Positions 7,714-63,900 of a stretch of DNA of 64,000 nt are shown here, piece by piece. The translations under genes and the position numbers were made by a program. The notes under the pieces are model-generated. The model was not told where the DNA came from, searched no databases, and worked only from the letters and a program-made list of their open reading frames with translations. Numbering within the stretch: position 1 is the first letter of the stretch; the number at the start of each line of letters is the position of its first letter. This DNA is from an uncultured Gammaproteobacteria bacterium (lineage in GTDB: Bacteria; Patescibacteriota; Microgenomatia; Levybacterales; UBA12049): contig CAZEJU010000004.1 of the NCBI GenBank assembly GCA_964512695.1, positions 12,656 through 76,655 on the forward strand. Reading direction: 5' to 3'.

Positions 7714-8469
7714 TTATGCATATTTCCCTGCCAGATCGTTTCTTTTTATACGAATTAGGTCTAAAACTCCCTCTATAGAATCTCTCACTGGACTTACGCG
7801 GCGAGTTTCCACATACAACCAGTTTACTGGTACTTCTTTAATTGTGTAGCCTGATTTACTTGCGATATAGAGCAATTCCATATCAAACCCTGCTTTTACC
7901 GAAGAACCTTTAATTGCTTTATACCCGTCATGTATGTCCTTAACTTTAGCAAAAAGTTTATGTGCCACATCATGTTTAAATGCTTTAAAACCACACTGTG
8001 TATCTTTAATCTCAGACTGTCCGAGAATCAACTTGCGCAGTAATATGGCAGAACGTGCCATAATAATTCTAGAAAGAGGGGCTCCTTCACGATTAGTATC
8101 TCGAGACCCTATAACAATATCAAAATCTTTTTCGAACTCAGGAAGTACTTTATCGATTTCTTCAATAGGAGTTGCCTGATCCATATCAGTAAATAAAATT
8201 ATGCTACCCTTTGCACTAAGCACGCCTTTCGTTACAGCTCCAGCTTTACCCATATGTTCACTCGTAATTAAACGAAAATGAGGATATTCTTTTACAAATT
8301 TTTTAATAAAATCAACACTTCCATCGGTAGAGCCATCATCAACTATGATTACTTCATAAGAATATTTCTGCTTACTTAGAAAGTGTTCGACTTTATCGAG
8401 GACTCCTTTACGAAGATTAGCCAATTCATCGTAACAAGGAATGATAACTGAAAGGAATGGTTGTTTCAT
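7714..8469 (-). CDS. GT2-family polyprenyl-phosphate glycosyltransferase (DPM1/GtrB/CsbB-like)
   Basis: LSVIIPCYDE...IIVDDGSTDGS...FTDMDQATP are the classic GT-A/GT2 motifs of dolichyl- or undecaprenyl-phosphate sugar synthases. It is the first gene of the GT cluster on the minus strand. Confidence 0.8.
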   Translation of the reverse strand: MKQPFLSVIIPCYDELANLRKGVLDKVEHFLSKQKYSYEVIIVDDGSTDGSVDFIKKFVKEYPHFRLITSEHMGKAGAVTKGVLSAKGSIILFTDMDQATPIEEIDKVLPEFEKDFDIVIGSRDTNREGAPLSRIIMARSAILLRKLILGQSEIKDTQCGFKAFKHDVAHKLFAKVKDIHDGYKAIKGSSVKAGFDMELLYIASKSGYTIKEVPVNWLYVETRRVSPVRDSIEGVLDLIRIKRNDLAGKYA

Positions 8470-8824: not shown

Positions 8825-9415
8825 TCAATTCCAACGTCTTAGAACTTCATCAAATCTAAACCAGAATTCTGGATAATGTATGTCAATAATTGGTTTCATA
8901 ATTTTAACAGTTTTATGTATATCCTGGTTTCGTAATCGTTGGTTATTCGACATCGCTAAAGAACGAGTGTTGTCTAATTTATCAGCTATTTTTATCTTCA
9001 GTATTTGTTGGTTACCAGACAGAAAAATTTCCCTTGCATATTCTGCCCAGTCTTTTTCTCTTGGACGAGTTAATAATTTTACACCTTCTAGAATTCGTAT
9101 TCCAAATTCTTTCAAAAGCATTTCTTCAGAATATGATGTATCTTCTAAGATATCGTGAAGCACTGCAATAATAATAGTATCACTCTGAACTTCATTCATT
9201 TCTTCACTTAAAATTCGTGGAACTCTCAGAAGATGAACATTTGCTATCCCTACTCCATCCAGTCGAGGTTCACTATGCAATCTTTTTACAAGCTCAACTG
9301 CTTTGTAAATTTTTTCTTTATCTTCTAAGTTCCAAATTTCACTCAGTTTTAATATATAGTCTTTCTGATATTCCCAATTTGTAAACAGTCTTCTGTCAAA
9401 CCAATATGTATTCAT
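8825..9415 (-). CDS. HD-domain (p)ppGpp hydrolase-like protein (RelA/SpoT hydrolase domain only, SAH-like)
   Basis: VHLLRVPRIL...AVLHDILEDT...KIKIADKLDN reproduce the H...HD...D metal-binding residues and the KLADRLHN-like motif of SpoT-type hydrolases. I set the start at the internal ATG (MNTYWFD...) at 9415, because the longer ORF to 9466 would overlap the ABC transporter by 32 nt. The start is uncertain. Confidence 0.55.
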   Translation of the reverse strand: MNTYWFDRRLFTNWEYQKDYILKLSEIWNLEDKEKIYKAVELVKRLHSEPRLDGVGIANVHLLRVPRILSEEMNEVQSDTIIIAVLHDILEDTSYSEEMLLKEFGIRILEGVKLLTRPREKDWAEYAREIFLSGNQQILKIKIADKLDNTRSLAMSNNQRLRNQDIHKTVKIMKPIIDIHYPEFWFRFDEVLRRWN

Positions 9416-9434: not shown

Positions 9435-11192
9435 TTATAATGTTTGCTCTTGCCACATTTTTGCAAAAATATGTTTCTTTTTCAGTAATGCCTCGAAGCT
9501 ACCTTCTTCTTTTATCTCTCCATCCTGCATAACAAGAATTTTGTCCATTTCTTTAATTGTAGATAAACGGTGTGCAATTACTATCGCAGTACAAGTTCCG
9601 AATGCTTCATGTAACGCTTCTTGAATCTGCTTTTCTGAATGAACATCAAGATGCGATGTTGCTTCATCTAATAACAAAATTTCTGGTTTCCTATAAAGTG
9701 CGCGTGCTATACCGACACGTTGACGTTGCCCACCTGAGAGTTTAATTCCTTTTTCTCCTACTAAGGTATCTACTCCTTGAGGTAATTGGGAAATAACATC
9801 TTCTAGATGAGCAGTTTGTATGACAGACATAAGTAACTCTGGATCTTCTTTCTGGCCTGGAACTGCTGTAATAGTGATATTATCTTTTAATGACATATTA
9901 AATAATTCCGTATCTTGTAAAACGACTGATACATTATCGATATATGACTGGCGTTTTATAAGTTTTAGGGGAACATCATCGAAGAATATCTCGCCTTCAT
10001 AGGTTTCATAAAGATCCATAAGTAGTTTAAAAAGCGTTGACTTTCCAGAACCAGAGATGCCTACAATACCTATTTTTTCACCTCTCTTAATAGTGATCGT
10101 TATATCACGGAGTACATCCTGAGTGTTATACATGAATTTAACATTTCGTATATGAATTTTTTCCCATGTGTCTGGAAAATTTAGTTGAGATTTCAATTTT
10201 TCAGGATTTTCAATTTCAGGCCTTGTATTGAGGATAGCACGTACTCTTCCAACCCAAATTTTCGAAATCACTATATCCTGAGTCACATCCATTAACTGCC
10301 AGACAGATTCTCCCATCCGCTGAAATAAAGTGACAAACAGGATAAGTAAACTGACATTATAAAATCCATTTAGTATCCCATAAATAATAAACCCTACTGC
10401 AGTCACTTCAAAGACACTGTAATAGAGATTTAATATACCGCTTTGCACTCTAAACCAAAAAATTCGTTTTCGGATTTCATCCACAAGTAATACAATTTTT
10501 TTTAAGATAACTAAAGAAATGTTTTTATCGATTGCTAAAGCTTTTATAGTACGAATATTGTTTAACCCTTCGAAAGTTATCCCTCCAAGATCTTCATCTT
10601 TCTGACTCGCACGTTTTTCATAATAAGATGCTCTACCTAGTAACATCACTCCAATAGTATAAAAACTAATCATAAAGAATAATAAAGCAAGCCCAATAGC
10701 CATATTTTGATTAACAAAAATTAAAAAAATTCCAAAAGTATTTACTACTACTTCAATAAAAACACTGAATATTTTTCTAATTATTTCGTTCATGCCATCT
10801 CTACCCCTACTAATTCGTTTAAATTTATTACCGCTGTTTTCAATTTCTTGCCATGATAAATCTAAGGCGAATATGTGCTTGAGACAGTCCCGATAGATAT
10901 CTAGTCCGGCCTGTTCTGCTACTTGAAATCCATAGTATTTTGCTAATTCTTTTGAAACACTCCTGTACGTGATTGCAAAAAGCCAAAAAAATAATAACTG
11001 CATTACAGATAAAAAAATGTCTTGATCTCTATTGGTGGTTAATAACAGAATAATTTGACTTAATGCAAAAGCAGGATATAATCTGGCGAGATCACTTGTG
11101 AGACGGAAAAAAAACGCCAGAAGGAACTTTACCCGGTAAGGTTTTACATAAAAATAAATGTCGTGAATGAATTGCGAATATGAATATGACAT
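9435..11192 (-). CDS. ABC transporter, fused permease/ATP-binding protein (MsbA/exporter type)
   Basis: 585 aa. Six-TM N-terminal half, Walker A GISGSGKST, signature LSGGQRQRVGIARAL and Walker B ILLLDEATS. Confidence 0.85.
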   Translation of the reverse strand: MSYSYSQFIHDIYFYVKPYRVKFLLAFFFRLTSDLARLYPAFALSQIILLLTTNRDQDIFLSVMQLLFFWLFAITYRSVSKELAKYYGFQVAEQAGLDIYRDCLKHIFALDLSWQEIENSGNKFKRISRGRDGMNEIIRKIFSVFIEVVVNTFGIFLIFVNQNMAIGLALLFFMISFYTIGVMLLGRASYYEKRASQKDEDLGGITFEGLNNIRTIKALAIDKNISLVILKKIVLLVDEIRKRIFWFRVQSGILNLYYSVFEVTAVGFIIYGILNGFYNVSLLILFVTLFQRMGESVWQLMDVTQDIVISKIWVGRVRAILNTRPEIENPEKLKSQLNFPDTWEKIHIRNVKFMYNTQDVLRDITITIKRGEKIGIVGISGSGKSTLFKLLMDLYETYEGEIFFDDVPLKLIKRQSYIDNVSVVLQDTELFNMSLKDNITITAVPGQKEDPELLMSVIQTAHLEDVISQLPQGVDTLVGEKGIKLSGGQRQRVGIARALYRKPEILLLDEATSHLDVHSEKQIQEALHEAFGTCTAIVIAHRLSTIKEMDKILVMQDGEIKEEGSFEALLKKKHIFAKMWQEQTL

Positions 11193-26902: not shown

Positions 26903-27014
26903 GAATGTATACTATCATATTTTTTAACTACACAAAAAAACTCCTCAGGTAAGCAACGTCTTATTCCTTTATTGTAGACCGAATGCAAAGGATCAACGTA
27001 TATATAAATCGTAT

Positions 27015-27266
27015 CTATATATTCCTATATGCAGTTGTAAATAATACAAAACAGGCTCCACAAATAGCTATAAAGAATGAAACTAGACTAAATTGTTCAA
27101 TAGGAATATTAAGAATGATATTTGTTAACAGTCCAGTAATTATCGCTCCTCCTACGCTAAGCATGAATGTATATTTATTTCGTAAGGAAGGTTCGAGAAT
27201 ATACGAAAGTCCTCCAACCACACTTCCGAAAATTATCCATGTTAGAAAATTTGTAAACATACTCAT
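27015..27266 (-). CDS. GlsB/YeaQ/YmgE-family small membrane protein
   Basis: MSMFTNFLTWIIFGSVVGGLSYIL is the transglycosylase-associated-protein family signature. 83 aa, three TM helices. Confidence 0.6.
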   Translation of the reverse strand: MSMFTNFLTWIIFGSVVGGLSYILEPSLRNKYTFMLSVGGAIITGLLTNIILNIPIEQFSLVSFFIAICGACFVLFTTAYRNI

Positions 27267-28115
27267 GATGCGATACTAAACTGTACTGATAAGATATAAA
27301 GCATAAAAAAGTAAGGATTATGTAAACATGCATACCTTTAGAAAAATTATGATAATTCTTACGATGGTTTTACGTATATTTACACGCTTATAACAAACGA
27401 AAATTATTATAGAAAATACATTATGAGCAATCTGCCCAGAAAGAATATCTATGATAATCGTAAATACATTATTAAGAAAACTTGTAGTTTATATAACACA
27501 AAAACGACATTTTTACCTCGTGAAGGTTTGTGCGTGGTGTCCGAAAAGTAGCTATCCGAAGTTACATCTATGGCAGTCATATACGCATGGTTTATGCCGC
27601 AAGCATTACTTGCTTCTCCAGAAAAACCATCAAAGACCACTACCACAGTTCGATTTCGATAAAGTTCTTTCTTTTCTTTTTCCCCATCAGAAAATGGCTT
27701 GATCATAAAGATGTATGAATTATTTAATACTCAACGTTGAAATTTTTAGAAGTTTTATAATGACGCCATCACTACTTCATCGGAAATTGCATACAGAAAG
27801 TATGAACAATTAATCTAGGCGTCCTGTATTAGAACCTCCTCTCGGAACTGTTCGATCACTGTCTACCGTAGACGTAACAGTGGTCAGGGGAAAAGCCTGA
27901 GGTTTCTTAGTAGAACTTACATCGCTGTTTGAGTTGAGGATTACCCGAAAACCACATGTGCCGCTAACGTAAGACAAATAAAAAATGTTAATAATGCGAT
28001 AACACTAGTTTTTAACATATTCCAACTCCTTTCTTGAAAAGTGTTTATATACGAATGTATTTTATTCGCATCTGAAGCAGATGATAAATGTGTAAGAGCA
28101 ATATAATAAGAGAAA

Positions 28116-38743: not shown

Positions 38744-38851
38744 TATTTAACTAAAGTAATCAGGTGATTTTCAATTCTAGTTTGAGTTTCATATCCACAA
38801 AAAAGAGCCAAAGACATTTTTTTATTACAATACCTTTGACTCTCCTTTATT

Positions 38852-39109
38852 TTACTCTTCATCACGTTCTTTAATCACTTTATGGGTAGTACCTTCTGCC
38901 TCTTTTATAGCGTTATCTGTACCCTCTGAAGATTTCAATTTTTCTGTAGTTTTCACTGCCCATTTTTTAACCTTTGTTATGGAATCTTTTACTTTCTCCT
39001 GGTTCTTTTTATCGCTCAACGCAACAGCAGCTGCCCCAAATGCTGCGCCGACTGCTAATCCAGCAGCTAAACCTGTTGTCCCTTTTACTTTTCCCGTTGA
39101 ATCTTTCAT
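38852..39109 (-). CDS. YtxH-like (DUF948) small stress protein
   Basis: GLAAGLAVGAAFGAAAVAL hydrophobic segment followed by a Lys/Glu-rich helix. I chose the MKDSTG start, which has an AAAGGTGGTGA Shine-Dalgarno sequence. Confidence 0.5.
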   Translation of the reverse strand: MKDSTGKVKGTTGLAAGLAVGAAFGAAAVALSDKKNQEKVKDSITKVKKWAVKTTEKLKSSEGTDNAIKEAEGTTHKVIKERDEE

Positions 39110-39198
39110 ATGCTCTTCACCACCTTTCATTTTTTTATGTAATTCAAAAGTTACATTTCGTAACACCTCACGTAACCTTTGAATTACTCTTATACTAC

Positions 39199-39450
39199 TT
39201 ACGCTCTTCGAAATACCCTCGAACCAAACAGAACTACTAAAGATCCTGCAACAGCTACCATAAACGATGTTATATCAAAAGCTGCAATACCAACCCCAAA
39301 CAGCATGTTTGCGAGAAACCCTCCTACCAATGCTCCGGCAACTCCGAGTAGAATTGCACCCAGTACTCCCCCTTCGTTTGGCGCGGGATCTATAGCATTT
39401 GCTACAATGCCGACAATTAAACCAAATAACATCCATGAAATAATATTCAT
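39199..39450 (-). CDS. GlsB/YeaQ/YmgE-family small membrane protein (second copy)
   Basis: MNIISWMLFGLIVGIVANAI... signature. The ATG start has AGGAGGTG 6 nt upstream. Confidence 0.6.
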   Translation of the reverse strand: MNIISWMLFGLIVGIVANAIDPAPNEGGVLGAILLGVAGALVGGFLANMLFGVGIAAFDITSFMVAVAGSLVVLFGSRVFRRA

Positions 39451-39633
39451 ACTTTTCACCTCCTAAACTTGTAAAATATCACATCTACGATAGAACTAAC
39501 TATACGTTATTAACTCTGTGGTCCTCATGACATCTAGCCTTGAGACTTTCTCATTTAATACTAGAGTTTCTATTTAAGAGAACAACCAATATCAGGTAAG
39601 GAAAGCGCAAGAAGTAGAAATGATCATTTAACT

Positions 39634-39668
39634 AAAAAAATGAGCATCTATCAGATGCTCATTTTTTA
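39634..39668. terminator. bidirectional rho-independent terminator (A7-TGAGCATC-TATCA-GATGCTCA-T6)
   Basis: Perfect 8-bp GC-containing stem and 5-nt loop flanked by A and T runs, read directly from the sequence. Lies between the YeaQ-like and KGG genes. Confidence 0.6.
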
Positions 39669-39721
39669 CCATTAATGATAAAAGATAAAATCGTTCAGCT
39701 GCATAGGGCAGCTGAAAAGTA

Positions 39722-39919
39722 TTATTGACTGGAACGGTTTTGGTGGCGTGCTTTTCCACCTTTTCGTCCTGCTGCTCTTGCTTCTTCTGAAGTCCATTTA
39801 TGAGCAGTCCCTTTTTTGTGAGCAGTTTTACCGCCTTTACTTGCAATCATGCGTTGTTTGTCTTTATTCATTGATGCAAATCCGCGGCCACTTTTTCCTC
39901 CTTGTAATTGATTAGCCAT
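39722..39919 (-). CDS. KGG-repeat stress-induced protein (YciG/general stress family)
   Basis: GGKSGRGFASM...KGGKTAHKKGTAHKW...RKGGKARHQ. Repeated KGG(K/Q) motifs. Start set at MANQ (GGGGGTGG Shine-Dalgarno sequence). A hairpin CAGCTGC-ATAGG-GCAGCTG sits immediately 3' of the gene. Confidence 0.55.
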   Translation of the reverse strand: MANQLQGGKSGRGFASMNKDKQRMIASKGGKTAHKKGTAHKWTSEEARAAGRKGGKARHQNRSSQ

Positions 39920-40198
39920 AACTTTCCACCCCCTCTCTTGAGCCTTTAGTTCATAGGAATACTCCACCTTCTTACTCGCACATATCCGTCGAAGATAGTT
40001 ATAAACTATACCCCTTACCCGGATACTATGGATTTAGATGCAACTAGTATTCATTCGATAATATACATCTCAACGTTAAGAGTTAGAAAAATAACTCGTA
40101 AGGATTAAGAAAGAAACAGAGCTTTTATTAAAATCTCTTATAGAAGTTTACAGATTGTAATAGATGAAAATAGAAAAGTAAACTGAAAAAAATAAAAA

Positions 40199-54594: not shown

Positions 54595-55935
54595 TTATTT
54601 AACAAGTGACGAAATAGATCCATCACCTGTAGTGATTATGAGTGTTTCACCAATTGTAACATCTTTTGCACTTTTAACAAGTCGTCCTTCTTGTCCTCGA
54701 ACTAAACTATAACCTAGTGCGAGTTGTCTCATAGGATCGTACACGTTAATTAACCGTTGTTTTGCTTCTAATTGCTCCTTTATGTTCCCTACAGCGAAGG
54801 AAAAAAGACGTTTTATTTTATCTTTGTTTATAGTTTCTAATTCCACATTCTGACTAACTACTGCATCTCCCATATGGCTAAAAATGTGCTGTTCATGTCT
54901 AGCAAGATTCTCAGAAAGAAGGACTAACTCGCGTGCAATTTGTGATACATATTCTGGCATATGCGAGGTAGTATATGAAAAAACATGAAGGATACGATTA
55001 AACTTATCTAACATACCTACCTGCTTTAATTGTATTGTTAAACCGACATCACTTAAAGCTTGTTTATAAGAAGTTACGATTTTTTGATAATCTATTAAGA
55101 CATTTTGACTACCTTTTTCCCAACTACTATTAAGTACGTTTGCAGCTGCAGTCGGAGTAGAAACCATCATATCGGCAGCTAAAGCACAAAGAGGCACATC
55201 TTGATGGTGTCCTATCGCGGCAATAATAGGCATGGGACATGTGGCAACTTCTCTAACTAACTGCTCAGCATCAAATGCCGCTAAAGATTGCAAAGAACCC
55301 CCACCCCGCATAAGTACAATAACTTCTACATCTCTCTTTTTCATAGTACGAAGAGCCCGATATAAGTCAGGAAGTGCATCTTGACCTTCAACTTTTGTAT
55401 TAAGTAAAGTTAACTGAAAACCATGCCGTGAAAGATTATTCATGAAATCATGGATAACAGCTCCTTGCTTTGAAGTAATAATTCCTATCTTCTGGGGGAA
55501 TAATGGTATAGCACGTTTTTTTTCTAAAGCGAATAATCCTTCTTTTGACAAGCGTACTTTTAATGCGTCATACGCTTTTTTTAATGCTCCTTCTCCGACC
55601 AGCTCTACAGAGCTAGCGATAAAACTAAGTCTACCTGAAGGGGCATATATATTTGCTTGTCCTGATGCGATAAGCTCCATTCCTGCTTCGATTTTTATGC
55701 CATACAAACTATAAAGATGTTTCCATAACACACAATCTAAAACAGATCCATCTTCTTTATCTTTTAACGTGAAGTAAACATGCCCGCTTGACCATATTTT
55801 TACTTGTGTTACCTCACCTATAATACTGGCTTCATAAAATTTTAGCTGTTCATTGAGTAACGCTATATAAGACGAAATTGATAATACTGTTTTTTCTTGA
55901 TTCATATTTAAAGAAATAAATTTTTTATTTAACAA
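54595..55935 (-). CDS. xseA: exodeoxyribonuclease VII large subunit
   Basis: N-terminal OB-fold (VTQVKIWSSGHVYFTLKD) and catalytic core ...GGGSLQSLAAFDAEQLVREVA... Size 446 aa. Confidence 0.8.
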   Translation of the reverse strand: MLNKKFISLNMNQEKTVLSISSYIALLNEQLKFYEASIIGEVTQVKIWSSGHVYFTLKDKEDGSVLDCVLWKHLYSLYGIKIEAGMELIASGQANIYAPSGRLSFIASSVELVGEGALKKAYDALKVRLSKEGLFALEKKRAIPLFPQKIGIITSKQGAVIHDFMNNLSRHGFQLTLLNTKVEGQDALPDLYRALRTMKKRDVEVIVLMRGGGSLQSLAAFDAEQLVREVATCPMPIIAAIGHHQDVPLCALAADMMVSTPTAAANVLNSSWEKGSQNVLIDYQKIVTSYKQALSDVGLTIQLKQVGMLDKFNRILHVFSYTTSHMPEYVSQIARELVLLSENLARHEQHIFSHMGDAVVSQNVELETINKDKIKRLFSFAVGNIKEQLEAKQRLINVYDPMRQLALGYSLVRGQEGRLVKSAKDVTIGETLIITTGDGSISSLVK

Positions 55936-56651: not shown

Positions 56652-56722
56652 TGCCAAGTCGTCTAATGGTAGGACAACGGACTCTGAATCCGTTTATTCT
56701 GGTTCGAATCCAGGCTTGGCAG
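56652..56722 (+). tRNA. tRNA-Gln (anticodon CUG)
   Basis: Folded by hand. Acceptor TGCCAAG/CTTGGCA (7 bp, perfect), D-loop AATGGTA, anticodon stem ACGGA/TCCGT with loop CTCTGAA (CTG at 34-36), T-arm TCTGG-TTCGAAT-CCAGG, discriminator G. Confidence 0.75.
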
Positions 56723-56777
56723 CTCAGATATATCAAACTGTATCAGTTCTTTTAAATAACTGATATTCTTATAGTTT

Positions 56778-57467
56778 TTATGATTGTTTGTGAAATTCCC
56801 CAATTTTTGAGATTAATTCGTCAATCTCATAATTTGACGTATTGATGTTGTGTTCTGAAAATGTACGGAGTCCCTCTATAATTTTCTGTACGAGTAAAGC
56901 TTTAGTTTTATTTAAATGTCCGATTTTAATATCGTTTTGTACATAGGTACGTGATACAACTTGGAGCGTTGCAAAGAACATTGATGATTCTATAAAGACA
57001 TTTGAAATATCTTTTATTTCTACACTGTGAGACTGTGATGAGAGAAATTGACTGAATTTAAAAGTGATCCTGCTTTCTTCTACTTCTATTGTATCCGGAA
57101 AAAAACTCCAAGGAAACGAAGAGGAAATGCTAATAATGCGTCTGTTTGATTTCTTTACCAAATCATTTACCATTTGTTTGTCTGCCTCGTTTTTCTCCGC
57201 AGCTGTTCTTGTGTGTGCATCAATTCCTGATTGCATTTGATTTTTGGCTTTTTCTTTAGAATTATTTTCTTTTTCTAATTTTTCAGCAGCATGGGTCTTT
57301 AATTGTTCCTCTTCTCTACGATTGTTATCTATTCTTACTTTCTCTCCCTGAATATGAAGTTTTTCTAGCCAATCGCTTATTTTATTATTTTCAAGATCGT
57401 CGGGTGAATTTTTTGGAATAATTAAAGGGATTCTTGAAAAAATCGTTTTTGATTTGTTGTCTACCAT
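56778..57467 (-). CDS. hypothetical protein, Lys/Glu-rich N-terminal half with a bacterial-PH-like C-terminal half
   Basis: ORF only. The C-terminal ~110 aa (...ITFKFSQFLSSQSHSVEIKDISNVFIESSMFFATLQV...) resembles bPH/YdbT-type domains. Weak. Confidence 0.35.
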   Translation of the reverse strand: MVDNKSKTIFSRIPLIIPKNSPDDLENNKISDWLEKLHIQGEKVRIDNNRREEEQLKTHAAEKLEKENNSKEKAKNQMQSGIDAHTRTAAEKNEADKQMVNDLVKKSNRRIISISSSFPWSFFPDTIEVEESRITFKFSQFLSSQSHSVEIKDISNVFIESSMFFATLQVVSRTYVQNDIKIGHLNKTKALLVQKIIEGLRTFSEHNINTSNYEIDELISKIGEFHKQS

Positions 57468-57882
57468 TTCAATAGTATAGACTTCTAATAAATGAATTGC
57501 GTAAGTGCGCTCATTTGGACTAACATTTACTTCCCAGCTATAGATTAAGAATAATTTGATCGAAAATAGTCCAAGATAGTATTTAAATACTAAATCATTG
57601 GATGTACATATAGTTACGTTGATAAAAAGTTCCTACACAGTCCAGGATGGCCAGCTGTGTTTTTAGCCACAAATTAGCTTCAAAATTTCTCGTATTCTTA
57701 CAAACAGGAGTCTGGATTCGAACTTTAGGTATACTGTACCTATGCTTTAGAAAAAGTGAAGTCCTCGAAAAATTTAAAAGAAATTCATAATGTGGATAAT
57801 GACACTGAAGAAAGAGGAATACATGTAGTAATTAGACACAGGGATATGACTACGTGTGACCTTTACCCAGACTTACATTTGA

Positions 57883-58266
57883 CTACTTATGATCAGCCAG
57901 CCATGCAACAGCCTCTGATTCTTCGCTAAAGTATCGTGTAGGCACAAGTATATCTAGCTCGTCTTTTATAAACTGCAAATACTCCTTTGGCATAACCAAT
58001 GCTATCTTGGACTTACCTGCTTTGGCTACGCGTGGGTGATATTCTTTATTTCGAAATTCAATGTTTTCAGATGGAAGCTCAAACCTAAAATTGGTTGTGT
58101 CTACGAGAGTGCGGGTGGCTTTGTATTCAATATTATAGCCCGCAAGATTCATTAATGCATCTTTAAAATCTTGAAAGTCCATATGAGCGGTATTTTCAAG
58201 CCAGCGATTAATCAGAATATTATCGCGTAATTCTATTTCATAGTATTTTGATTTATAAAGTTTCAT
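57883..58266 (-). CDS. hypothetical 127-aa protein, divergent partner of the HxlR regulator
   Basis: ORF only. No confident family. Confidence 0.35.
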   Translation of the reverse strand: MKLYKSKYYEIELRDNILINRWLENTAHMDFQDFKDALMNLAGYNIEYKATRTLVDTTNFRFELPSENIEFRNKEYHPRVAKAGKSKIALVMPKEYLQFIKDELDILVPTRYFSEESEAVAWLADHK

Positions 58267-58348
58267 AACTTTTCCTTATGGATCTTTTAGTGTATACTTA
58301 TGATAAGTTAGTGCAACTATTTATACAAGTACTAACAAAGTAGTAAGT

Positions 58349-58780
58349 ATGAAACATAAAATGAGCCAGGAAGAGATATTAAAAATTCTACCCAAACAAG
58401 GAGATTTGTATAATCCACTTTGTCCAACTAGGTCTATTATTGATCATGTTTCAAGTGTGTGGGGTTCGATAATCTTAAAAGTGTTGGCAGAAAATGAAAC
58501 AATGCGTTTCGCAGAATTAAGGCGACAAATTGCAGGTATTTCCGAAAGAATGCTGGCTCAAACACTTCGTCATTTTGAACGAGATGGTCTAGTAACTCGG
58601 AAGAGCTACCCTGTCATACCTCCTAAGGTTGAATATTCGCTAACGCCGTTAGGTCGAGACTGTGCAGAAAAAGTTATTTCTTTTTGCAGTTTCATAGAGG
58701 ATCACATGCTCACTATAGTCAAGAATCAACTAAAGTATGACGAAACACCAAATAAGGCTTCATGGCAAAAACTGTCATAA
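58349..58780 (+). CDS. HxlR/YodB-type winged-helix transcriptional regulator
   Basis: CPTRSIIDHVSSVWGSIILKVL...FAELRRQIAGISERMLAQTLRHFERDGLVTRKSYPVIPPKVEYSLTPLG is the canonical HxlR family pattern. Confidence 0.7.
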   Translation: MKHKMSQEEILKILPKQGDLYNPLCPTRSIIDHVSSVWGSIILKVLAENETMRFAELRRQIAGISERMLAQTLRHFERDGLVTRKSYPVIPPKVEYSLTPLGRDCAEKVISFCSFIEDHMLTIVKNQLKYDETPNKASWQKLS

Positions 58781-59026
58781 GCAAAAAGGGTTTAGATAAA
58801 CTATCTATCAGAAATTGTCTTTTAAAATGTTAATCTCTCTAATAGTTTGTAATATTACTCTATAAGCTCGTATAAAGTTGATTACTGTAAAAAGTTCCTA
58901 CATAGTCAACCAGTGCCAGCCAATCACCAGATTTTGCCCGTGCTGATTTGTTTCAAGTCTTTCTGATTGTCGTTTTCCAAGAAAAAGAGGTTGTATGGGG
59001 TGTAAATAGTATATAATAGCCTTTAC

Positions 59027-59683
59027 ATGAAAATTTCCGCATCAGATCTCTGTAAGCAATTACTAGATAAGGAAAAAATACTTAATTCCGAGGGTAAGAT
59101 ATTATTTACCTTAAATGGGCTTTCTACTTTAGTGAATGATAAAAATATTATCGGAAACGTTCTCCAGGATTGGCTTGCTGAGTGGATGATAAAAAATGAG
59201 ATAGAGTTTGTTAAACCACCAAATAGTCAGGAATTTCCCGATTTCTACTTAGATCCTTCGAACCCAGAAGCTAACCTACTAGAAATAAAAGCTTTTGATA
59301 TAAATGCCGGGGCAAATTTTGATATTGCAAATTTTGAAGCATATTGTAGCTCTCTAATAACCAAAAGATATAGATTAGACGCAAATTACCTAATATTTGG
59401 TTACGAGTTAATTGATGGAAAACTTATTATCAAAAATCTTTGGTTGAAAAAGATATGGGAGATATCTGGTCCCAGTGAAGCTTATCCTGTTAGGGTTCAA
59501 CAGAAAAGAGGCATGATATACAATTTGAGGCCAATTAATTGGTTTTCAGAAGGTAGGATAACTTATAAGGGGTTTGGATCAAAAGAAGAGTTTTTAACTG
59601 CACTACATAAAACGCTGCTCATGTATGTAAAGACTTCAGAACAATCTATCGAATGGCTAAAGCAGGTATCAGAAAAAGTTTAA
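59027..59683 (+). CDS. candidate type II restriction endonuclease (PD-(D/E)xK)
   Basis: Convergent with the C5-MTase and overlapping it by 4 nt. Contains a PD...(D/E)xK-like arrangement (FPDFYLD ... LLEIKAF). Specificity unknown. Confidence 0.45.
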   Translation: MKISASDLCKQLLDKEKILNSEGKILFTLNGLSTLVNDKNIIGNVLQDWLAEWMIKNEIEFVKPPNSQEFPDFYLDPSNPEANLLEIKAFDINAGANFDIANFEAYCSSLITKRYRLDANYLIFGYELIDGKLIIKNLWLKKIWEISGPSEAYPVRVQQKRGMIYNLRPINWFSEGRITYKGFGSKEEFLTALHKTLLMYVKTSEQSIEWLKQVSEKV

Positions 59684-60993
59684 CTCATTGATGTAATCAA
59701 TCTATCGGCTACTGCTTCTACGACTTTTACAGTAATAGTATTCCCGAGTAAATCAAACCCGTCTTTCACAGGTATATCCATCTTAAAATCTTCTGGAAAT
59801 CCAAATAGCCTTAATCCTTCTCGTAAAGTAAGCTTTCTTATTCCGTCTCCATCAGGCACTACGAGTCTTTCAACATCTGTGGCTACTAATGTAGGCGCGA
59901 GACCATTAGGATCAAGTATTTTATTAATCTCGTAACTTAATTTTCCTGTCACAATATTATACCCTTTCTCAATTTTAGTATTTTCTTTTCGGCTTGAAAT
60001 CTCATTCCCATATATGTCTGTTTCCATAACCATATCTTTAGGATGTTCAAATTTCAAATACCCCTTTGAAACCAAGTCATCTAAGTGTTTTTTTAGATCT
60101 TTGATATCAAATACAGATTTTATCTCATCATAGGTTAAAGGCATCCCATCCATCCACTTTATCCCTTTCTTTTTTGCCCAATGCTTCTTTCTTCTTTCTC
60201 GAAGTAAGAAGTCAAGTATCTGTATTTGTTCTTTATTTACCGGACCTCTTAACTCAAGATCCCAACCATGAATGTTATTTTCCCCGCCACGTTTGTCTTT
60301 GATAGATTTTCCGTATAATTCACGTACCTTATATTTTTTTAATAACGTCTTAACGAAAGGTGTATGGAGAGTTTCTAGTCCCTTCTCTAAAATTTCACCT
60401 AAATGGGTTTCTTTTTTATCGATAAACTCTAAAGGAATTAGAGTATCTTTTGTGCCAACAATATAAACTCTTTTTCTACTTTGGGGAACTCCAAAATACT
60501 GCGAATCAAGAAGTGCCCAGCTCGTTTTATATCCTAAAGCTTCTAATCGGTCAATTATAGTCTCCAGAGTTCTTCCAATTAATTTATTTTTATCAACCCT
60601 ATCATGCTTTACCAAACCCTCAACGTTTTCTAGTAAGAAGCCGTACGGTTTTTTATCTTTCAGAATTCTCTCTATTTCAAAAAAAAGTGTCCCTCGCGTA
60701 TCGAGAAATCCTTTCCTAGACCCTGCAGAGCTAAATGGTTGACATGGAAATCCAGCTAATAAAAAGTCAAAATCAGGTATTTCTGAGGAGGCTATCTTTG
60801 TAATATCACCGGATACTTTTTCTTTTGGAAAATTTTGTTTTAGCACCTTAATTGCATGATCTTTAATCTCTGATATGAAGACACATTCAATATCTAATCC
60901 GTGCTTTTTTGTAGCTTGTTCAAACCCTATGCGTGTCCCGCCAATACCTGCAAAAAGATCAATAATTTTTATAGTTTTCTTCTTGTTGATCAT
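59680..60993 (-). CDS. DNA (cytosine-5)-methyltransferase
   Basis: Motif I IDLFAGIGG, motif IV GFPCQPFS, motif VI ENV, and C-terminal motif X (LLGNTITVKV). Confidence 0.9.
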   Translation of the reverse strand: MINKKKTIKIIDLFAGIGGTRIGFEQATKKHGLDIECVFISEIKDHAIKVLKQNFPKEKVSGDITKIASSEIPDFDFLLAGFPCQPFSSAGSRKGFLDTRGTLFFEIERILKDKKPYGFLLENVEGLVKHDRVDKNKLIGRTLETIIDRLEALGYKTSWALLDSQYFGVPQSRKRVYIVGTKDTLIPLEFIDKKETHLGEILEKGLETLHTPFVKTLLKKYKVRELYGKSIKDKRGGENNIHGWDLELRGPVNKEQIQILDFLLRERRKKHWAKKKGIKWMDGMPLTYDEIKSVFDIKDLKKHLDDLVSKGYLKFEHPKDMVMETDIYGNEISSRKENTKIEKGYNIVTGKLSYEINKILDPNGLAPTLVATDVERLVVPDGDGIRKLTLREGLRLFGFPEDFKMDIPVKDGFDLLGNTITVKVVEAVADRLITSMS

Positions 60994-61265
60994 TGAGTAA
61001 TTATATCAGTTTATTCTTAATGGTTTCAGAGTCTATTGTAGGTTTAAATGAATAAATTGCTTATTGAAAAGTGGTTACTAGGTTTTTGATACTCGAAGTC
61101 ATATCTATAGTGAGACGTAGATAGTAAAAAAAGTCTTCAAATGAAGGTTGTATTTATTTCTATATTCATAGGTTGCTTTACAATCTCTCTCTTTACAGGG
61201 TAGTCTAAGTAATACTAATTCGTGATATAGAACTATTTCATCCCATTTAGCGGTTCGAATATCGT

Positions 61266-62045
61266 CTATGTCCGCCAGCATGTAAGGATTTTATAAAGCT
61301 TGACCCATTGTTCTAAGCTTACAAAGCTAGGCTTTACATCACGATTCAAATTAATAGTTCTCATAGCTTGAAGTACATTGTGCTTTCCATACTGTTTCTT
61401 TAGATTATCCTTTAGACGCTGTCCATATCCAAAACCAATCTCTACAAAACGCTGATATTTTGCAATATCGTTCCAAATTAATAGAGGTTCTTTTCTCTTT
61501 CTAAAATTTAACATTACAGCATCCACACTCGGTACGGGTTCGAAGTCTGTTCGTCTGAACAGATGGTACATTGAAAACTCGAACCATGGTTTATGCATAA
61601 TAGAGAACATATTTTCTTTATATGGAGCTGCTAACCTGTACGCTAACTCTTTCATCATTACTAGATAACAATCCTCAGGAGGATTTTTAGCATCAATAAG
61701 CTTTCTAATAATCTTTCCTTCAATGGAAAATGGAATATTCGCAAAGACTTTATATGGTGCAGAAGGCAATGTATATTCAAGAAAGTCTTTCTGATACAGC
61801 GTGAAATTGTTCTTACTACTGAATTTTTGCTGGAGGTATTTGTACCAATATGTATCAAGCTCAACTGCGATTACATGCTGCGCTTGCTGTACAAGACGCT
61901 CAGTAATGATACCTTTGCCAGGTCCAATTTCTAAAACGAGATCATTTGTACCAATAGAGGAACGTCCAAGAAGTTTAGCAACTAACTTCCGGTTATGAAG
62001 AAAGTTTTGAGATAGGAGCTTGCGACGTAGATTGTACACGTCCAA
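61266..62045 (-). CDS. rRNA adenine N6-methyltransferase of the Erm/KsgA family (Erm-like features)
   Basis: LSQNFLHN, LEIGPGKGIIT (the GxGKG variant typical of Erm rather than KsgA's GPGxxxLT) and FANIPFSI. A TTG start with a GGGAGG Shine-Dalgarno sequence is the first in-frame start after a stop. Confidence 0.65.
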   Translation of the reverse strand: MDVYNLRRKLLSQNFLHNRKLVAKLLGRSSIGTNDLVLEIGPGKGIITERLVQQAQHVIAVELDTYWYKYLQQKFSSKNNFTLYQKDFLEYTLPSAPYKVFANIPFSIEGKIIRKLIDAKNPPEDCYLVMMKELAYRLAAPYKENMFSIMHKPWFEFSMYHLFRRTDFEPVPSVDAVMLNFRKRKEPLLIWNDIAKYQRFVEIGFGYGQRLKDNLKKQYGKHNVLQAMRTINLNRDVKPSFVSLEQWVKLYKILTCWRT

Positions 62046-62271
62046 GCACCTCCCTCATGAAAAATCGAGTATTCATGCCTAACTATTATAACTTTATTAA
62101 CTTTGAAAAGCAAAAACTGGCACAAACTTGCTATCGAGTTTTTCTAAATAAATTAGAATAGCGTCTATGTCTACCACCTACGTTTGACAAACTCCCTCTA
62201 GATATAAACTGTCAAATGGTTTGTCCTCGCAAAGAAAACTTTAGCGCCATCGGGTGGAAAAAGTAAAAAAT

Positions 62272-63654
62272 TTACTCAGGAAGCAGTTTTCCAGGATTTA
62301 ATATTCCTTTTGGATCAAGTAAATCCTTAAGTGCATGCATTAAATGAAGACTTGTCGGGTGTTCAATGGAAAGAAATTTTCTTTTTCCTATACCCACTCC
62401 ATGTTCTCCTGTCGTTGTTCCACCAACATTAATTGCGAACTTGATTAACTCTTCATTAAGCTTTACTACTCTTTTCCAGGACTCATCGTTACTAAGCTCA
62501 TATAATGCCCATCCATGAAAGTTTCCATCTCCCATATGACCAAACATCACTGTTTGCAATTCATACTTTTTTGAGACTTCTTTCGCTTTTTCAAGCAAAT
62601 TTGATACTTGTGATACAGGCACACCGACTTCCGCTGATAATACACCTATATTGGGAAGCAGAGTGGAAAGAACTGGCCGTACAGCTCTTCTGTACTCCCA
62701 CAATTTTGTCAGCTCGTCTTTTGTAGTAAATCCCTGATAATAGATTGCATTATTGTTTTCGCAAATGGATTGTATATGAGTCATATGCAAGGCTAGAACT
62801 TTTTTATTTCCATGCAGCTCAATAAGTAATGTCGGTTTTTCATGTAATTTCGTGCCTTTTGCTTTATTAACCAGCATGACATAGGTATCATCCATAAATT
62901 CAACAGAAGCAGGTTTTATATCTGATTTCAATAAATCAAGACACGTATTTGCAGCAGCAGTGTAACTTGAAAATGAGGCAAGTACAGCAATCTTTGATTC
63001 CGGTAAGGGTGTTAACTTTAATACTGCTTCAGTTATAACACCTAGCGTTCCTTCAGAGCCAATGAAGAGACGTTTCAAGTCGTATCCGGAAACCGACTTA
63101 AAAGATCTGCTTCCTAGCCGAATTATAGTACCGTCTACAAGCACAACCTCAAGCTCTAAGACAGCATCTCCGACAACCCCGTATTTTACTGCATGCATAC
63201 CGCCTGCATTATTAGCAATCATTCCTCCGATAGTTGCTAAATGTTTACTTCCTGGAGCAGCAGCAAACCATAAATTATAAGGTCTCAATTGTCTATCCAG
63301 TTCTTCGCCTATTATTCCTGGTTGTACGCGTACTTGTAAATCTTTCGGAATAACTTCCAAAATTTTATTCATGCGAGTCATGTTCAATACTATTCCGCCG
63401 CTAAGAGGAATGGGATTCCCTTCAAGACTTGATCCTCCTCCCCAGGCAGTTACAGGGATTTTATGCATATTAGCAAGCTTAAGAATTTTACTTACTTGTT
63501 GCGTATTTTTCGGCCAGATAACAATTTCGGGGGAGGCTTTCTTGTGGAACGACATATCTTTCGAGTGTTTTTCCAGATGTTCTTTTTCAAGAGATAGTTG
63601 TTTTTCACTGACAATAGCCGTAAGGCTTTCTATAATATTTCTCGTCATTTTCAT
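62272..63654 (-). CDS. FAD-linked oxidase (GlcD / D-lactate dehydrogenase family)
   Basis: FAD-binding PCMH domain (TAWGGGSSLEGNPIP) and a C-terminal FAD-oxidase domain. Confidence 0.75.
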   Translation of the reverse strand: MKMTRNIIESLTAIVSEKQLSLEKEHLEKHSKDMSFHKKASPEIVIWPKNTQQVSKILKLANMHKIPVTAWGGGSSLEGNPIPLSGGIVLNMTRMNKILEVIPKDLQVRVQPGIIGEELDRQLRPYNLWFAAAPGSKHLATIGGMIANNAGGMHAVKYGVVGDAVLELEVVLVDGTIIRLGSRSFKSVSGYDLKRLFIGSEGTLGVITEAVLKLTPLPESKIAVLASFSSYTAAANTCLDLLKSDIKPASVEFMDDTYVMLVNKAKGTKLHEKPTLLIELHGNKKVLALHMTHIQSICENNNAIYYQGFTTKDELTKLWEYRRAVRPVLSTLLPNIGVLSAEVGVPVSQVSNLLEKAKEVSKKYELQTVMFGHMGDGNFHGWALYELSNDESWKRVVKLNEELIKFAINVGGTTTGEHGVGIGKRKFLSIEHPTSLHLMHALKDLLDPKGILNPGKLLPE

Positions 63655-63900
63655 AATCTTACAAACGTAATCACATGATTATACTATAACGCAGAAATAT
63701 AATGAGATTAAAAGTAAATTCGAACATAGTCCCAGATGACCTGTCTCTTCCATTCTTTATGCGCAAAGCTATTATCTCCAGTCATTAGGGGGTGTTAGGA
63801 TATTCTTTTCTTTATGAATTTTATGGAGTGTCGAAAATATATTCATCTCCATAAATCTCATTTATTTAATACCCTGAAAGCAGTATAATTCGAGATAGTT

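Follow-up and report, generated by a model that had tools for sequence, protein, structure and literature searches.

Directly 3′ of a tRNA-Gln gene with anticodon CUG, the 64-kb window analyzed here (64,000 nucleotides (nt) of contig CAZEJU010000004.1, from an uncultured Patescibacteria bacterium) carries a series of small gene modules that are separated by direct copies of a repeat of approximately 35–45 nt, which we term M. We consider this stretch to be, most probably, an old recombination hotspot at tRNA-Gln that holds an array of modules without an integrase, with repeats derived from tRNA-Gln lying between the modules. On this reading, the DNA 3′ of tRNA-Gln(CUG) would be a mosaic of independent modules of one to four genes, and M, especially its first copy (M1) together with an adjoining segment termed F, would be recombination footprints or recombination sites at the 3′ end of tRNA-Gln. 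The M copies would correspond to attL/attR-type duplications, as from integration into a tRNA gene, that now form a partly decayed tandem array. Module 1 would consist of a gene for a 229-amino-acid (aa) PH-like protein, an old and conserved neighbor of tRNA-Gln; module 2 would be a self-contained HxlR/STAS cassette whose insertion at an M site yielded M1 and a second copy, M2; and the segment between M2 and a third copy, M3, holds three units, namely a restriction-modification (R-M) pair predicted to act at GGNNCC, an Erm-family gene of the type typical of the Candidate Phyla Radiation (CPR), and a GlcD-like oxidase gene. The arrayed segments measure 0.9–4.8 kb and contain one to four genes each. 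The elements of the locus, including the restriction endonuclease (REase) and DNA methyltransferase (MTase) of the R-M pair, are as follows, with positions counted from the start of the window:

56652–56723, plus strand: tRNA-Gln(CUG), the anchor of the array (ARAGORN; Rfam RF00005, 63.4 bits)
56778–57467, minus strand: 229-aa protein, long helices at the N-terminus and a PH-like domain at the C-terminus (homologs, fold model, tRNA-Gln neighborhood)
57468–57621, minus strand: U, the region upstream of the 229-aa gene (DNA alignment to locus L015)
57622–57655, plus strand: M1, a decayed tRNA-Gln 3′ half with GTTCCTA (T-loop-like), a CACAG insertion, TCCAGG and ATGGCCA-GC
57656–57728, plus strand: F, a copy of the sequence immediately 3′ of tRNA-Gln(UUG) in relatives, with a terminal inverted T-arm fragment (alignment to locus L018)
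57883–58266, minus strand: 127-aa STAS/SpoIIAA-like protein, the presumed target gene of HxlR (marginal PF11964 match; fold model)
58292–58312, no strand assigned: conserved palindromic putative operator GTATACTTATGATAAGTTAGT between the divergent genes (cross-locus alignment)
58349–58780, plus strand: HxlR-family (MarR-like) winged-helix regulator (PF01638, 1.3e-23, 83.1 bits)
58888–58921, plus strand: M2, the second repeat copy (repeat search, M profile)
59027–59683, plus strand: NgoBV/NlaIV-family type IIP REase with a PD...EIK motif, predicted site GGNNCC (PF09564, 7e-54; PADLOC REase_II)
59680–60993, minus strand: C5-cytosine DNA MTase, the cognate methylase, with FAGIGG, PCQ and ENV (PF00145, TIGR00675)
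61266–62045, minus strand: Erm-family rRNA adenine-N6 methyltransferase of a CPR-common type (NF000499)
62272–63654, minus strand: GlcD-like FAD-linked oxidase, between M2 and M3 (PF01565 and PF02913)
63713–63745, plus strand: M3, the third repeat copy AAATTCGAACATAGTCCCAGATGACCTG, intergenic (M profile, nhmmer)

The gene order from the 229-aa gene through the 127-aa, HxlR, REase, MTase and Erm-like genes is that listed in a first-pass annotation made from the letters of the window, and the Pfam, NCBIfam and PADLOC assignments agree with its labels. The repeat array continues beyond the stretch it described, past the GlcD-like gene to position 63745.

Repeat M resembles the 3′ half of tRNA-Gln

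M1 and M2 are 82% identical over 33 nt, with 19 of 20 positions matching in the left part. The repeat has two matches in the window, a number that none of 100 shuffles reached; the direct repeat described in the first-pass annotation is real, and it is longer than the coordinates given there. In order, M consists of GTTGAT (a remnant of the variable region), the T-loop, a 5-nt insertion, the 3′ strand of the T-stem (TCCAGG), a variable 7-nt acceptor-like strand and GC. The T-loop sequence GTTCGAA is altered to GTTCCTA in the window. A multi-genome alignment places the insertion, CA(Y)AG, at the boundary between T-loop and T-stem, where it is common to all M copies and missing from real tRNAs.

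Alignment to loci from other genomes (designated by L numbers) extends the resemblance beyond the repeat. Positions 57641–57724 of the window are 82% identical to positions 2349–2266 of L018, which comprise the last 15 nt of a tRNA-Gln(UUG) gene and its downstream flank, and M1+F also aligns with the 3′ end and flank of tRNA-Gln(UUG) in L029, a locus that carries both tRNA+F and M+F′. The similarity of the first repeat copy to the tRNA-Gln 3′ end had been noticed before; it stands, and reaches further than supposed, into the flank. To the left, positions 57468–57636 are 90% identical to the region upstream of a 229-aa homolog in L015. This L015 homology stops inside M1, and five nt later the L018-type homology to the tRNA flank starts. 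The right half of M2, AGTGCCAGCCAATC, matches the M that lies upstream of the 229-aa homolog in L015. F is closed by TCTGGATTCGAAC, an inverted copy of the tRNA T-arm; this is the further repeat fragment that had been reported at 57700, which exists but is located at 57711–57723. Judged by these alignments, M and F derive from the 3′ half of tRNA-Gln and its flank.

Near-perfect inverted copies of the T-loop, T-stem and acceptor occur 45–50 nt 3′ of intact tRNA-Gln(UUG) genes in the two closest relatives, L018 (2258–2362, minus strand) and L029 (2204–2312, minus strand), each following the T-stem sequence of its own tRNA (CCAGG in L018 versus CCATG in L029). The inverted copy pairs with the 3′ half of tRNA-Gln(UUG) in a 13–18-bp hairpin (z = −4.7 in L018 and −2.4 in L029); it could act as a signal for termination or processing, or as a recombination site. 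For the M regions, folding does not exceed that of shuffled sequence (z between −0.55 and +0.66), and on these grounds M or M+F as an attC-like hairpin was rejected. The acceptor-like strand of M1, ATGGCCA, matches neither tRNA-Gln(CUG) nor tRNA-Gln(UUG). An Rfam scan returned two tRNAs only, with no family matched by M or F.

M is clustered downstream of tRNA-Gln and recurs in other genomes

Scanning the window with a profile of M yielded three copies, all on the strand of the tRNA and within 7.1 kb downstream of tRNA-Gln, and no copy in the other 56 kb. The nhmmer E-value of M3 was 1 before its inclusion in the training set and 9e-5 after, and the exact 14-mer TTCGAACATAGTCC is common to M3, which lies between the GlcD-like gene and its neighbor, and the M of L029. 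A genome-wide search for the repeat had been proposed in the first-pass annotation; within the 64 kb, no copy lies outside the tRNA-Gln-proximal stretch, although the third copy falls beyond the end that had been assigned to it.

M recurs in at least six other genomes. It is found upstream of the 229-aa homolog in L015, L029, L030 and L035/L036, with four copies within 2.6 kb of L030 and two copies plus a tRNA-Gln in L035, and L089 contains one copy about 2 kb upstream of its 229-aa homolog. All M copies in these loci are co-oriented with the tRNA, and the order of tRNA-Gln or M, then genes, then M is seen in L029, L030 and L035. The L030 copies include a tandem partial duplication of M (188–254), in which the left half plus TCCAA precedes a complete M; the junction lies just after AGTCCA, the point at which the homology breakpoints of the window fall.

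Two candidates for additional copies were rejected. Phage-borne M, considered in 38 viral contigs, amounts to chance, with 16-mer-only matches and both L140 copies inside large open reading frames (ORFs). A 24-nt repeat around the Erm-like gene (61254–61277 and 62153–62176, 83% identity) is at chance level in 5.9 kb, and no M model detects it as an M pair.

The HxlR/STAS cassette is a portable unit

The 127-aa gene and the HxlR gene, 82 nt apart, had been described as a divergent pair of an orphan and a regulator. The pairing stands, but the protein is no orphan: a homolog search found 20 homologs, and at all 10 places shown for the three homologs that were looked up, the gene is divergently paired with HxlR. 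Its match to PF11964 is marginal (25.6 bits). A confident model (predicted local distance difference test score, pLDDT, of 95), whose top fold matches are RsbS and anti-sigma-antagonist folds, points to a STAS/SpoIIAA-like fold. Between the two genes lies a palindrome block, ACTAACTTAT..TAAGTATA, which is conserved in the window, L019, L022, L026 and L027, with most positions invariant and with diverging flanks. The HxlR protein presumably regulates the STAS gene.

Besides the window, the cassette occurs in three unrelated contexts (L019–L021, L022–L025 and L026–L028), and across the four contexts the proteins are 75–87% identical. DNA homology between cassettes extends exactly from stop codon to stop codon (57884–58780), and the flanks are entirely different. 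In L019, L020 and L021 the cassette is bracketed by an M-like direct repeat with 18 of 20 matching positions, TTCCAACgTCGTCCCATgGC; the repeat sequence in these loci, TTCCAACGTCGTCCCATGGC, has the same orientation relative to the cassette as M1 and M2 have in the window. The same element is therefore bounded by the same type of repeat at independent locations, and on these comparisons the cassette is portable between genomic contexts. The earlier observation that the repeat copies bracket the HxlR/127-aa pair is confirmed, with M1 and M2 on either side of a portable module.

In L015, where there is no cassette, U is followed by the left half of M and next by a right half like that of M2, AGTGCCAGC-AATC. 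A locus before insertion should look like this, and the cassette thus looks inserted at an M site. Taken together, the stop-to-stop homology, the M-like repeats of L019–L021 and the cassette-less M of L015 suggest that the cassette entered at an M site, with one M becoming M1 and M2. A relative close enough for a precise empty-site comparison was not found.

Two other features of these loci were recorded. In L019, a palindromic element of approximately 100–150 nt, with stems GCATTTACCTTTTGAAAA / TTTTCAAAAGGTAAATGC, occurs twice (9250–9358 and 10569–10728), just outside the M-like repeats. L022 (14110–15759) and L025 (5804–7453) each encode a 549-aa reverse transcriptase (RVT_1) some 4 kb away from the HxlR cassette.

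The 229-aa gene is a conserved neighbor of tRNA-Gln

The 229-aa protein had likewise been called an orphan, a label that does not survive a homolog search: it has 523 homologs at 54–88% identity, none of them annotated. Named homologs of this protein and of the Erm-like protein belong mainly to metagenome-assembled genomes (MAGs) of Microgenomates, Pacebacteria, Woesebacteria and Patescibacteria, and relatives of the 229-aa family were not found in IMG/VR. The C-terminal 125 residues are near-invariant across the family. An AlphaFold model shows long N-terminal helices followed by a PH-like sandwich (pLDDT 80–90 in the C-terminal domain), the C-terminal 120 residues being modeled as a seven-stranded sandwich with a helix cap, and in a fold search of the PDB nearly all top matches of this domain are PH or PH-like. 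The bacterial PH (bPH)-like C-terminus suspected at first pass holds as a predicted fold, which the protein would share with bPH proteins; it differs from them in that its N-terminal half is a long charged helical region and in that no Pfam bPH family, or any other, matches it at E ≤ 0.01.

For neighborhood comparison, 86 loci encoding 229-aa homologs were collected. Of the 21 tRNAs in their vicinity, nine are tRNA-Gln, in each case downstream of the gene (L013, L016, L017, L018, L029, L031, L034, L041 and L045; closer relatives, with 62–88% identity). The spacing between tRNA-Gln and the 229-aa homolog is 0.5–8.6 kb in these relatives, with different genes in each, and 54 nt in the window. 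The 229-aa gene is accordingly an old, conserved gene of the lineage and a usual neighbor of tRNA-Gln rather than cargo, and in this genome the canonical insertion point directly 3′ of the tRNA is practically unoccupied. A clean switch from housekeeping to accessory genes at tRNA-Gln, as first proposed, is not what we find, given this conserved neighbor and an Erm-like family that is widespread in the CPR.

In the window, the anticodon of the tRNA-Gln next to the 229-aa gene is CUG, but at the equivalent place in the closest relatives (L016, L017, L018, L029 and L045) it is UUG; since the window has no tRNA-Gln(UUG), one must sit elsewhere in the genome. A 7-bp hairpin, ATCAGTT-N9-AACTGAT (56742–56764), lies between the convergent tRNA-Gln and 229-aa genes and looks like a terminator shared by both. 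Synteny with L016 through its NUDIX gene was rejected, as the NUDIX proteins of the two loci are only 26% identical and hence not orthologous.

The R-M pair is predicted to act at GGNNCC, a site depleted across the window

The first-pass annotation recognized a convergent type II R-M pair with a 4-nt overlap, and the profile searches bear this out. The REase matches PF09564 (RE_NgoBV, 7.2e-54) over profile positions 1–216 of 238, and its translation carries FPDFYLD...LLEIKAF, a PD-(D/E)xK motif. The C5-MTase matches PF00145 (3e-81) and TIGR00675 (336 bits against a cutoff of 100.65) and contains motifs I, IV and VI (FAGIGG, GFPCQPFS and LLENVEG). The two genes converge and overlap by 4 nt at 59680–59683.

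Enzymes of the RE_NgoBV family recognize GGNNCC. The related system NlaIV has the site GGNNCC with methylation at GGNN-5mC-C, where 5mC is 5-methylcytosine (PMC4676702). We found this site to be strongly depleted in the window, with 12 occurrences observed compared to 54.8 expected in a third-order Markov simulation (z = −7.0), and with 43.5 expected under a maximal-order Markov model (observed/expected ratio, O/E, 0.28). It is the most depleted of 117 palindromes tested, none of the others being comparably depleted, and controls of the same composition have O/E values of 1.11 (CCNNGG), 0.90 (GCNNGC), 0.96 (CGNNCG) and 1.0 (GGCC). The depletion also holds across the 56 kb outside the region. 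In relatives' loci the O/E of GGNNCC is 0.7–1.37, with 0.91 in the loci of the closest 229-aa homologs. The sites that remain in the window are at 8080, 11438, 12363, 12608, 16735, 27054, 30748, 41529, 47790, 50709, 53327 and 59468, the last inside the REase gene.

A prediction of specificity by profile search, as had been suggested, thus leads through the RE_NgoBV family to GGNNCC as the putative site, with a matching depletion. Since the purge of GGNNCC extends over all 64 kb of the window, the R-M pair did not arrive recently; it appears to be resident and is probably active, and the REase would be active as well. Its residence would have been sufficiently long for some 70% of its sites to be lost from the genome. 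This or an isospecific system has therefore long acted on the lineage, via restriction or via deamination of 5mC. Compared with the NlaIV and NgoBV systems, the pair is alike in its full-length PF09564 REase, in its adjacent C5-MTase with all core motifs, in the convergent and overlapping arrangement of its genes, and in the strong and specific avoidance of its predicted site in host DNA; it differs in its host, an uncultured Patescibacteria bacterium, and in that its specificity and activity are deduced. The specificity call is of value as one made from sequence alone, the GGNNCC system having left a visible mark on the DNA of its host.

The Erm-like gene belongs to a family widespread in the CPR

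The identification of an Erm-like adenine-N6 rRNA methyltransferase is upheld at the level of the Erm family: the protein scores 234.8 bits with NF000499, a broad Erm model of NCBI (cutoff 212), and falls below the cutoff of the KsgA model TIGR00755 (158.6 bits versus 171). Its best relatives of solved structure are ErmE (6nvm) and Erm38. Homologs number 576 at E ≤ 1e-20, with 75% identity for the nearest, and NCBI gives the name Erm to some of them in MAGs of Parcubacteria and Pacebacteria. No paralog was found in the 64-kb window. In a survey of CPR genomes, erm was the commonest resistance-type methyltransferase, with 13,375 hits in 12,552 genomes, and CPR methyltransferases tested in Escherichia coli produced no resistance phenotype, macrolide-lincosamide-streptogramin (MLS) genes having been excluded from that test (preprint, doi 10.64898/2026.07.13.738296). 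The gene appears to be lineage-typical and widespread in the CPR, and its target is a prediction. It shares with the Erm methyltransferases of 23S rRNA A2058 the curated Erm cutoff, which it passes, and its nearest solved structures, whereas no recorded sequence exceeds 75% identity to it and it is not near any named clinical Erm class.

Elsewhere, in L109 (6896–8768), a 72%-identical Erm homolog directly follows an APH-family (PF01636) kinase gene, and SIR2_2, TraG/TrwB-like ATPase and zeta-toxin-like genes lie nearby. This locus of another CPR genome is possibly a cluster of resistance genes or a mobile one.

Searches for recombinase and defense genes

No recombinase, transposase or integrase domain was found by Pfam in nearly all window ORFs of at least 110 aa (xseA, 54595–55935, and four overlapping ORFs were outside the scan), and the small ORFs of the region have no recombinase domain either. 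The absence of an integrase asserted at first pass is therefore borne out among the ORFs scanned. PADLOC reported nothing beyond the R-M pair, save a partial match of the Erm-like methyltransferase to the mad2 model, and PADLOC and PHROGs gave nothing for the 229-aa, 127-aa, 57-aa and 58-aa ORFs; a role in defense for the 229-aa and 127-aa proteins, which the PADLOC search had been meant to probe, thus finds no match for either. The 57-aa ORF (57756–57929) and the 58-aa ORF (61105–61281) are probably spurious, because they overlap real genes. Of the earlier description of the stretch as an old, degraded integration site or defense islet, the first half is partly right, in view of the tRNA-Gln recombination footprints and the lack of an integrase among the ORFs scanned, and defense fits the R-M pair only.

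Synteny through xseA was uninformative. Its relatives in species-representative genomes are only 33–56% identical, and in none of these nearest GTDB genomes is the tRNA-Gln neighborhood kept. Labeled xseA relatives are mostly Parcubacteria, Saccharibacteria and Kaiserbacteria MAGs, with several named only "bacterium" and one Gammaproteobacteria. Low GC, these relatives and the named homologs of the Erm-like and 229-aa proteins place the contig in the Patescibacteria (CPR).

Alternative explanations

M could instead be a lineage-specific cis-regulatory or structural intergenic motif of tRNA descent (an operator, a UP-like element or a repetitive extragenic palindromic (REP)-like element) with no role in mobility, the modules then being ordinary chromosomal genes. 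M is always intergenic or at an intergenic edge, often 100–190 nt upstream of a co-oriented start codon (106 nt from M2 to the REase, 152 nt from the L035 copy to a HisKA gene and 147 nt from the L030 copy to a gene for a 168-aa protein); it is more conserved than flanking intergenic DNA where the neighboring protein is 65–88% identical; and its right half holds the palindromic hexamers TGGCCA, ACCGGT and GCCGGC. A TTGAT(A/T) hexamer upstream of M is a candidate −35 element, but its distance varies between 11 and 17 nt, so that M fits no sigma-70 promoter, and the REase has its own TATAAT 9 nt before its ATG. M as a sigma-70 promoter or intrinsic terminator was rejected, the spacing being inconsistent and the scans at background level. 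We regard a purely cis-acting motif as unlikely, since M is clustered by tRNA-Gln with none in the other 56 kb, M1 runs into native tRNA flank, the cassette has M-like repeats on both sides at an unrelated locus too, and the L015 and L018 homology breakpoints fall inside M.

Somewhat less likely again is that the whole block is vertically inherited core DNA, with M1+F, M2 and M3 left over from the tRNA-Gln locus having been partly duplicated in ancient times and with the differences between genomes reflecting general scrambling of gene order. Flat GC and near-normal codon usage would fit such inheritance, as would the long R-M residence implied by GGNNCC avoidance, the lineage-wide distribution of the Erm-like and 229-aa families, and the fact that xseA synteny is likewise unconserved in the nearest genomes. 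It accounts poorly for an HxlR cassette that occurs in four unrelated contexts at 75–87% protein identity with homology ending at the gene ends, and for a 127-aa gene with the most deviant codon usage (chi2/df 2.0, the only outlier) and the highest GC content at third codon positions (GC3) in the window, the six genes of the stretch together having GC3 modestly above the rest (Mann-Whitney p = 0.002). Moreover, the closest relatives' loci are not depleted of GGNNCC (O/E 0.91), which indicates that the R-M pair was gained after the lineages split. At the other extreme, the strongest form of the first-pass idea, a single recently acquired defense or resistance island at tRNA-Gln, would draw on the tRNA adjacency, the complete R-M pair, the Erm-family gene and the direct repeats. 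It is very improbable and already contradicted by the evidence in hand, as no integrase is present among the ORFs scanned, the tRNA-adjacent gene is a conserved neighbor in relatives, the GGNNCC purge needs long residence, there is no compositional step at the boundary, and the repeats subdivide the block and continue past it rather than bracketing it. Even without the word recent, one acquired island does not agree with a conserved 229-aa gene, a widespread Erm family, a long-resident R-M pair and flat composition.

The tRNA-Gln array that we favor has observations to its disadvantage as well. Window GC is about 35% and flat across the region, with no step at the tRNA boundary, and GC content and codon usage hardly hint at a foreign source. 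The distribution of M in this genome is that of one 64-kb window, and M is not detectable in two of the three other cassette contexts (L022–L025 and L026–L028). The M+F hairpin is decayed (z = −0.55 for M1+F in the window and about 0 for M+F′ in L029), and the higher conservation of M and its shared insertion fit another functional motif as well as they fit att scars. An isospecific R-M system elsewhere in the genome could be an alternative cause of the GGNNCC depletion. Because no recombinase (among the ORFs scanned), circular junction or precise empty site was observed, mobility is drawn from comparisons only. Under the array reading, the M copies would have arisen by, or would serve, site-specific recombination, and the recombinase would have acted, or would act, in trans.

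Relation to known systems and significance

Genomic islands at tRNA genes may form tandem arrays by accretion, and their integrase-less derivatives are known as cis-mobilizable elements (CIMEs). This is the closest known concept. As in such islands, direct repeats of the 3′ part of a tRNA, in the orientation of the tRNA, divide segments that lie 3′ of an intact tRNA gene and have no recombinase. The window differs in that its segments are tiny (0.9–4.8 kb), all repeats have a 5-nt insertion alien to the tRNA, one repeat copy also carries the downstream flank of the tRNA, the tRNA-adjacent gene is a conserved chromosomal neighbor, and a cognate integrase or parent element was not found.

A likeness to integron arrays and to the pdif modules of Acinetobacter lies in the short conserved sites between small recombinase-less modules with defense, resistance-type and regulatory genes. 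Unlike integrons, the window has no intI or tyrosine recombinase among the ORFs scanned, and M has no attC-like hairpin; unlike pdif sites, M does not resemble dif, and M sites are all direct rather than alternating and are tRNA-derived. The resemblance would therefore speak to a possible working mode, not to membership. The HxlR cassette shares with known HxlR regulators the HxlR domain, a divergent gene 82 nt off and a conserved palindromic putative operator in the shared intergenic region. It differs in that its target is a small STAS/SpoIIAA-like protein instead of an oxidoreductase or detoxification enzyme, and in that the pair moves as a unit among genomic contexts.

Beyond the array as such, it is a speculative and improbable further step that M is the working site of an undescribed trans-acting system of Microgenomates-type Patescibacteria that shuffles integrase-less cassettes at tRNA-Gln, with the 229-aa protein perhaps as an accessory factor. 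Such a system would be functionally integron- or pdif-like, with a site derived from a tRNA 3′ half. M as a still-working recombination site is the only part with real novelty, the other parts being known: the single genes are ordinary for the CPR, in which the abundance of R-M systems and erm-like methylases is established. As a lead on gene movement in the reduced genomes of the CPR, where mobile elements are poorly described, the locus indicates that small recombinase-less modules may move between tRNA-Gln-derived sites. Were this confirmed, it would constitute a new route of gene flux in the CPR; for now the locus is a recombination scar, though a well-documented one. The analysis also corrects annotation, in that the two supposed orphans belong to a large conserved family of PH-like proteins linked to tRNA-Gln and to a small STAS family found in company with its HxlR regulator.

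Elsewhere in the window, positions 26903–28115 and 38744–40198 form stretches of 1.2–1.5 kb each without an ORF of at least 110 aa or an Rfam match at the gathering threshold, and an identical 1.7-kb piece of the window is present in SRR8893623.

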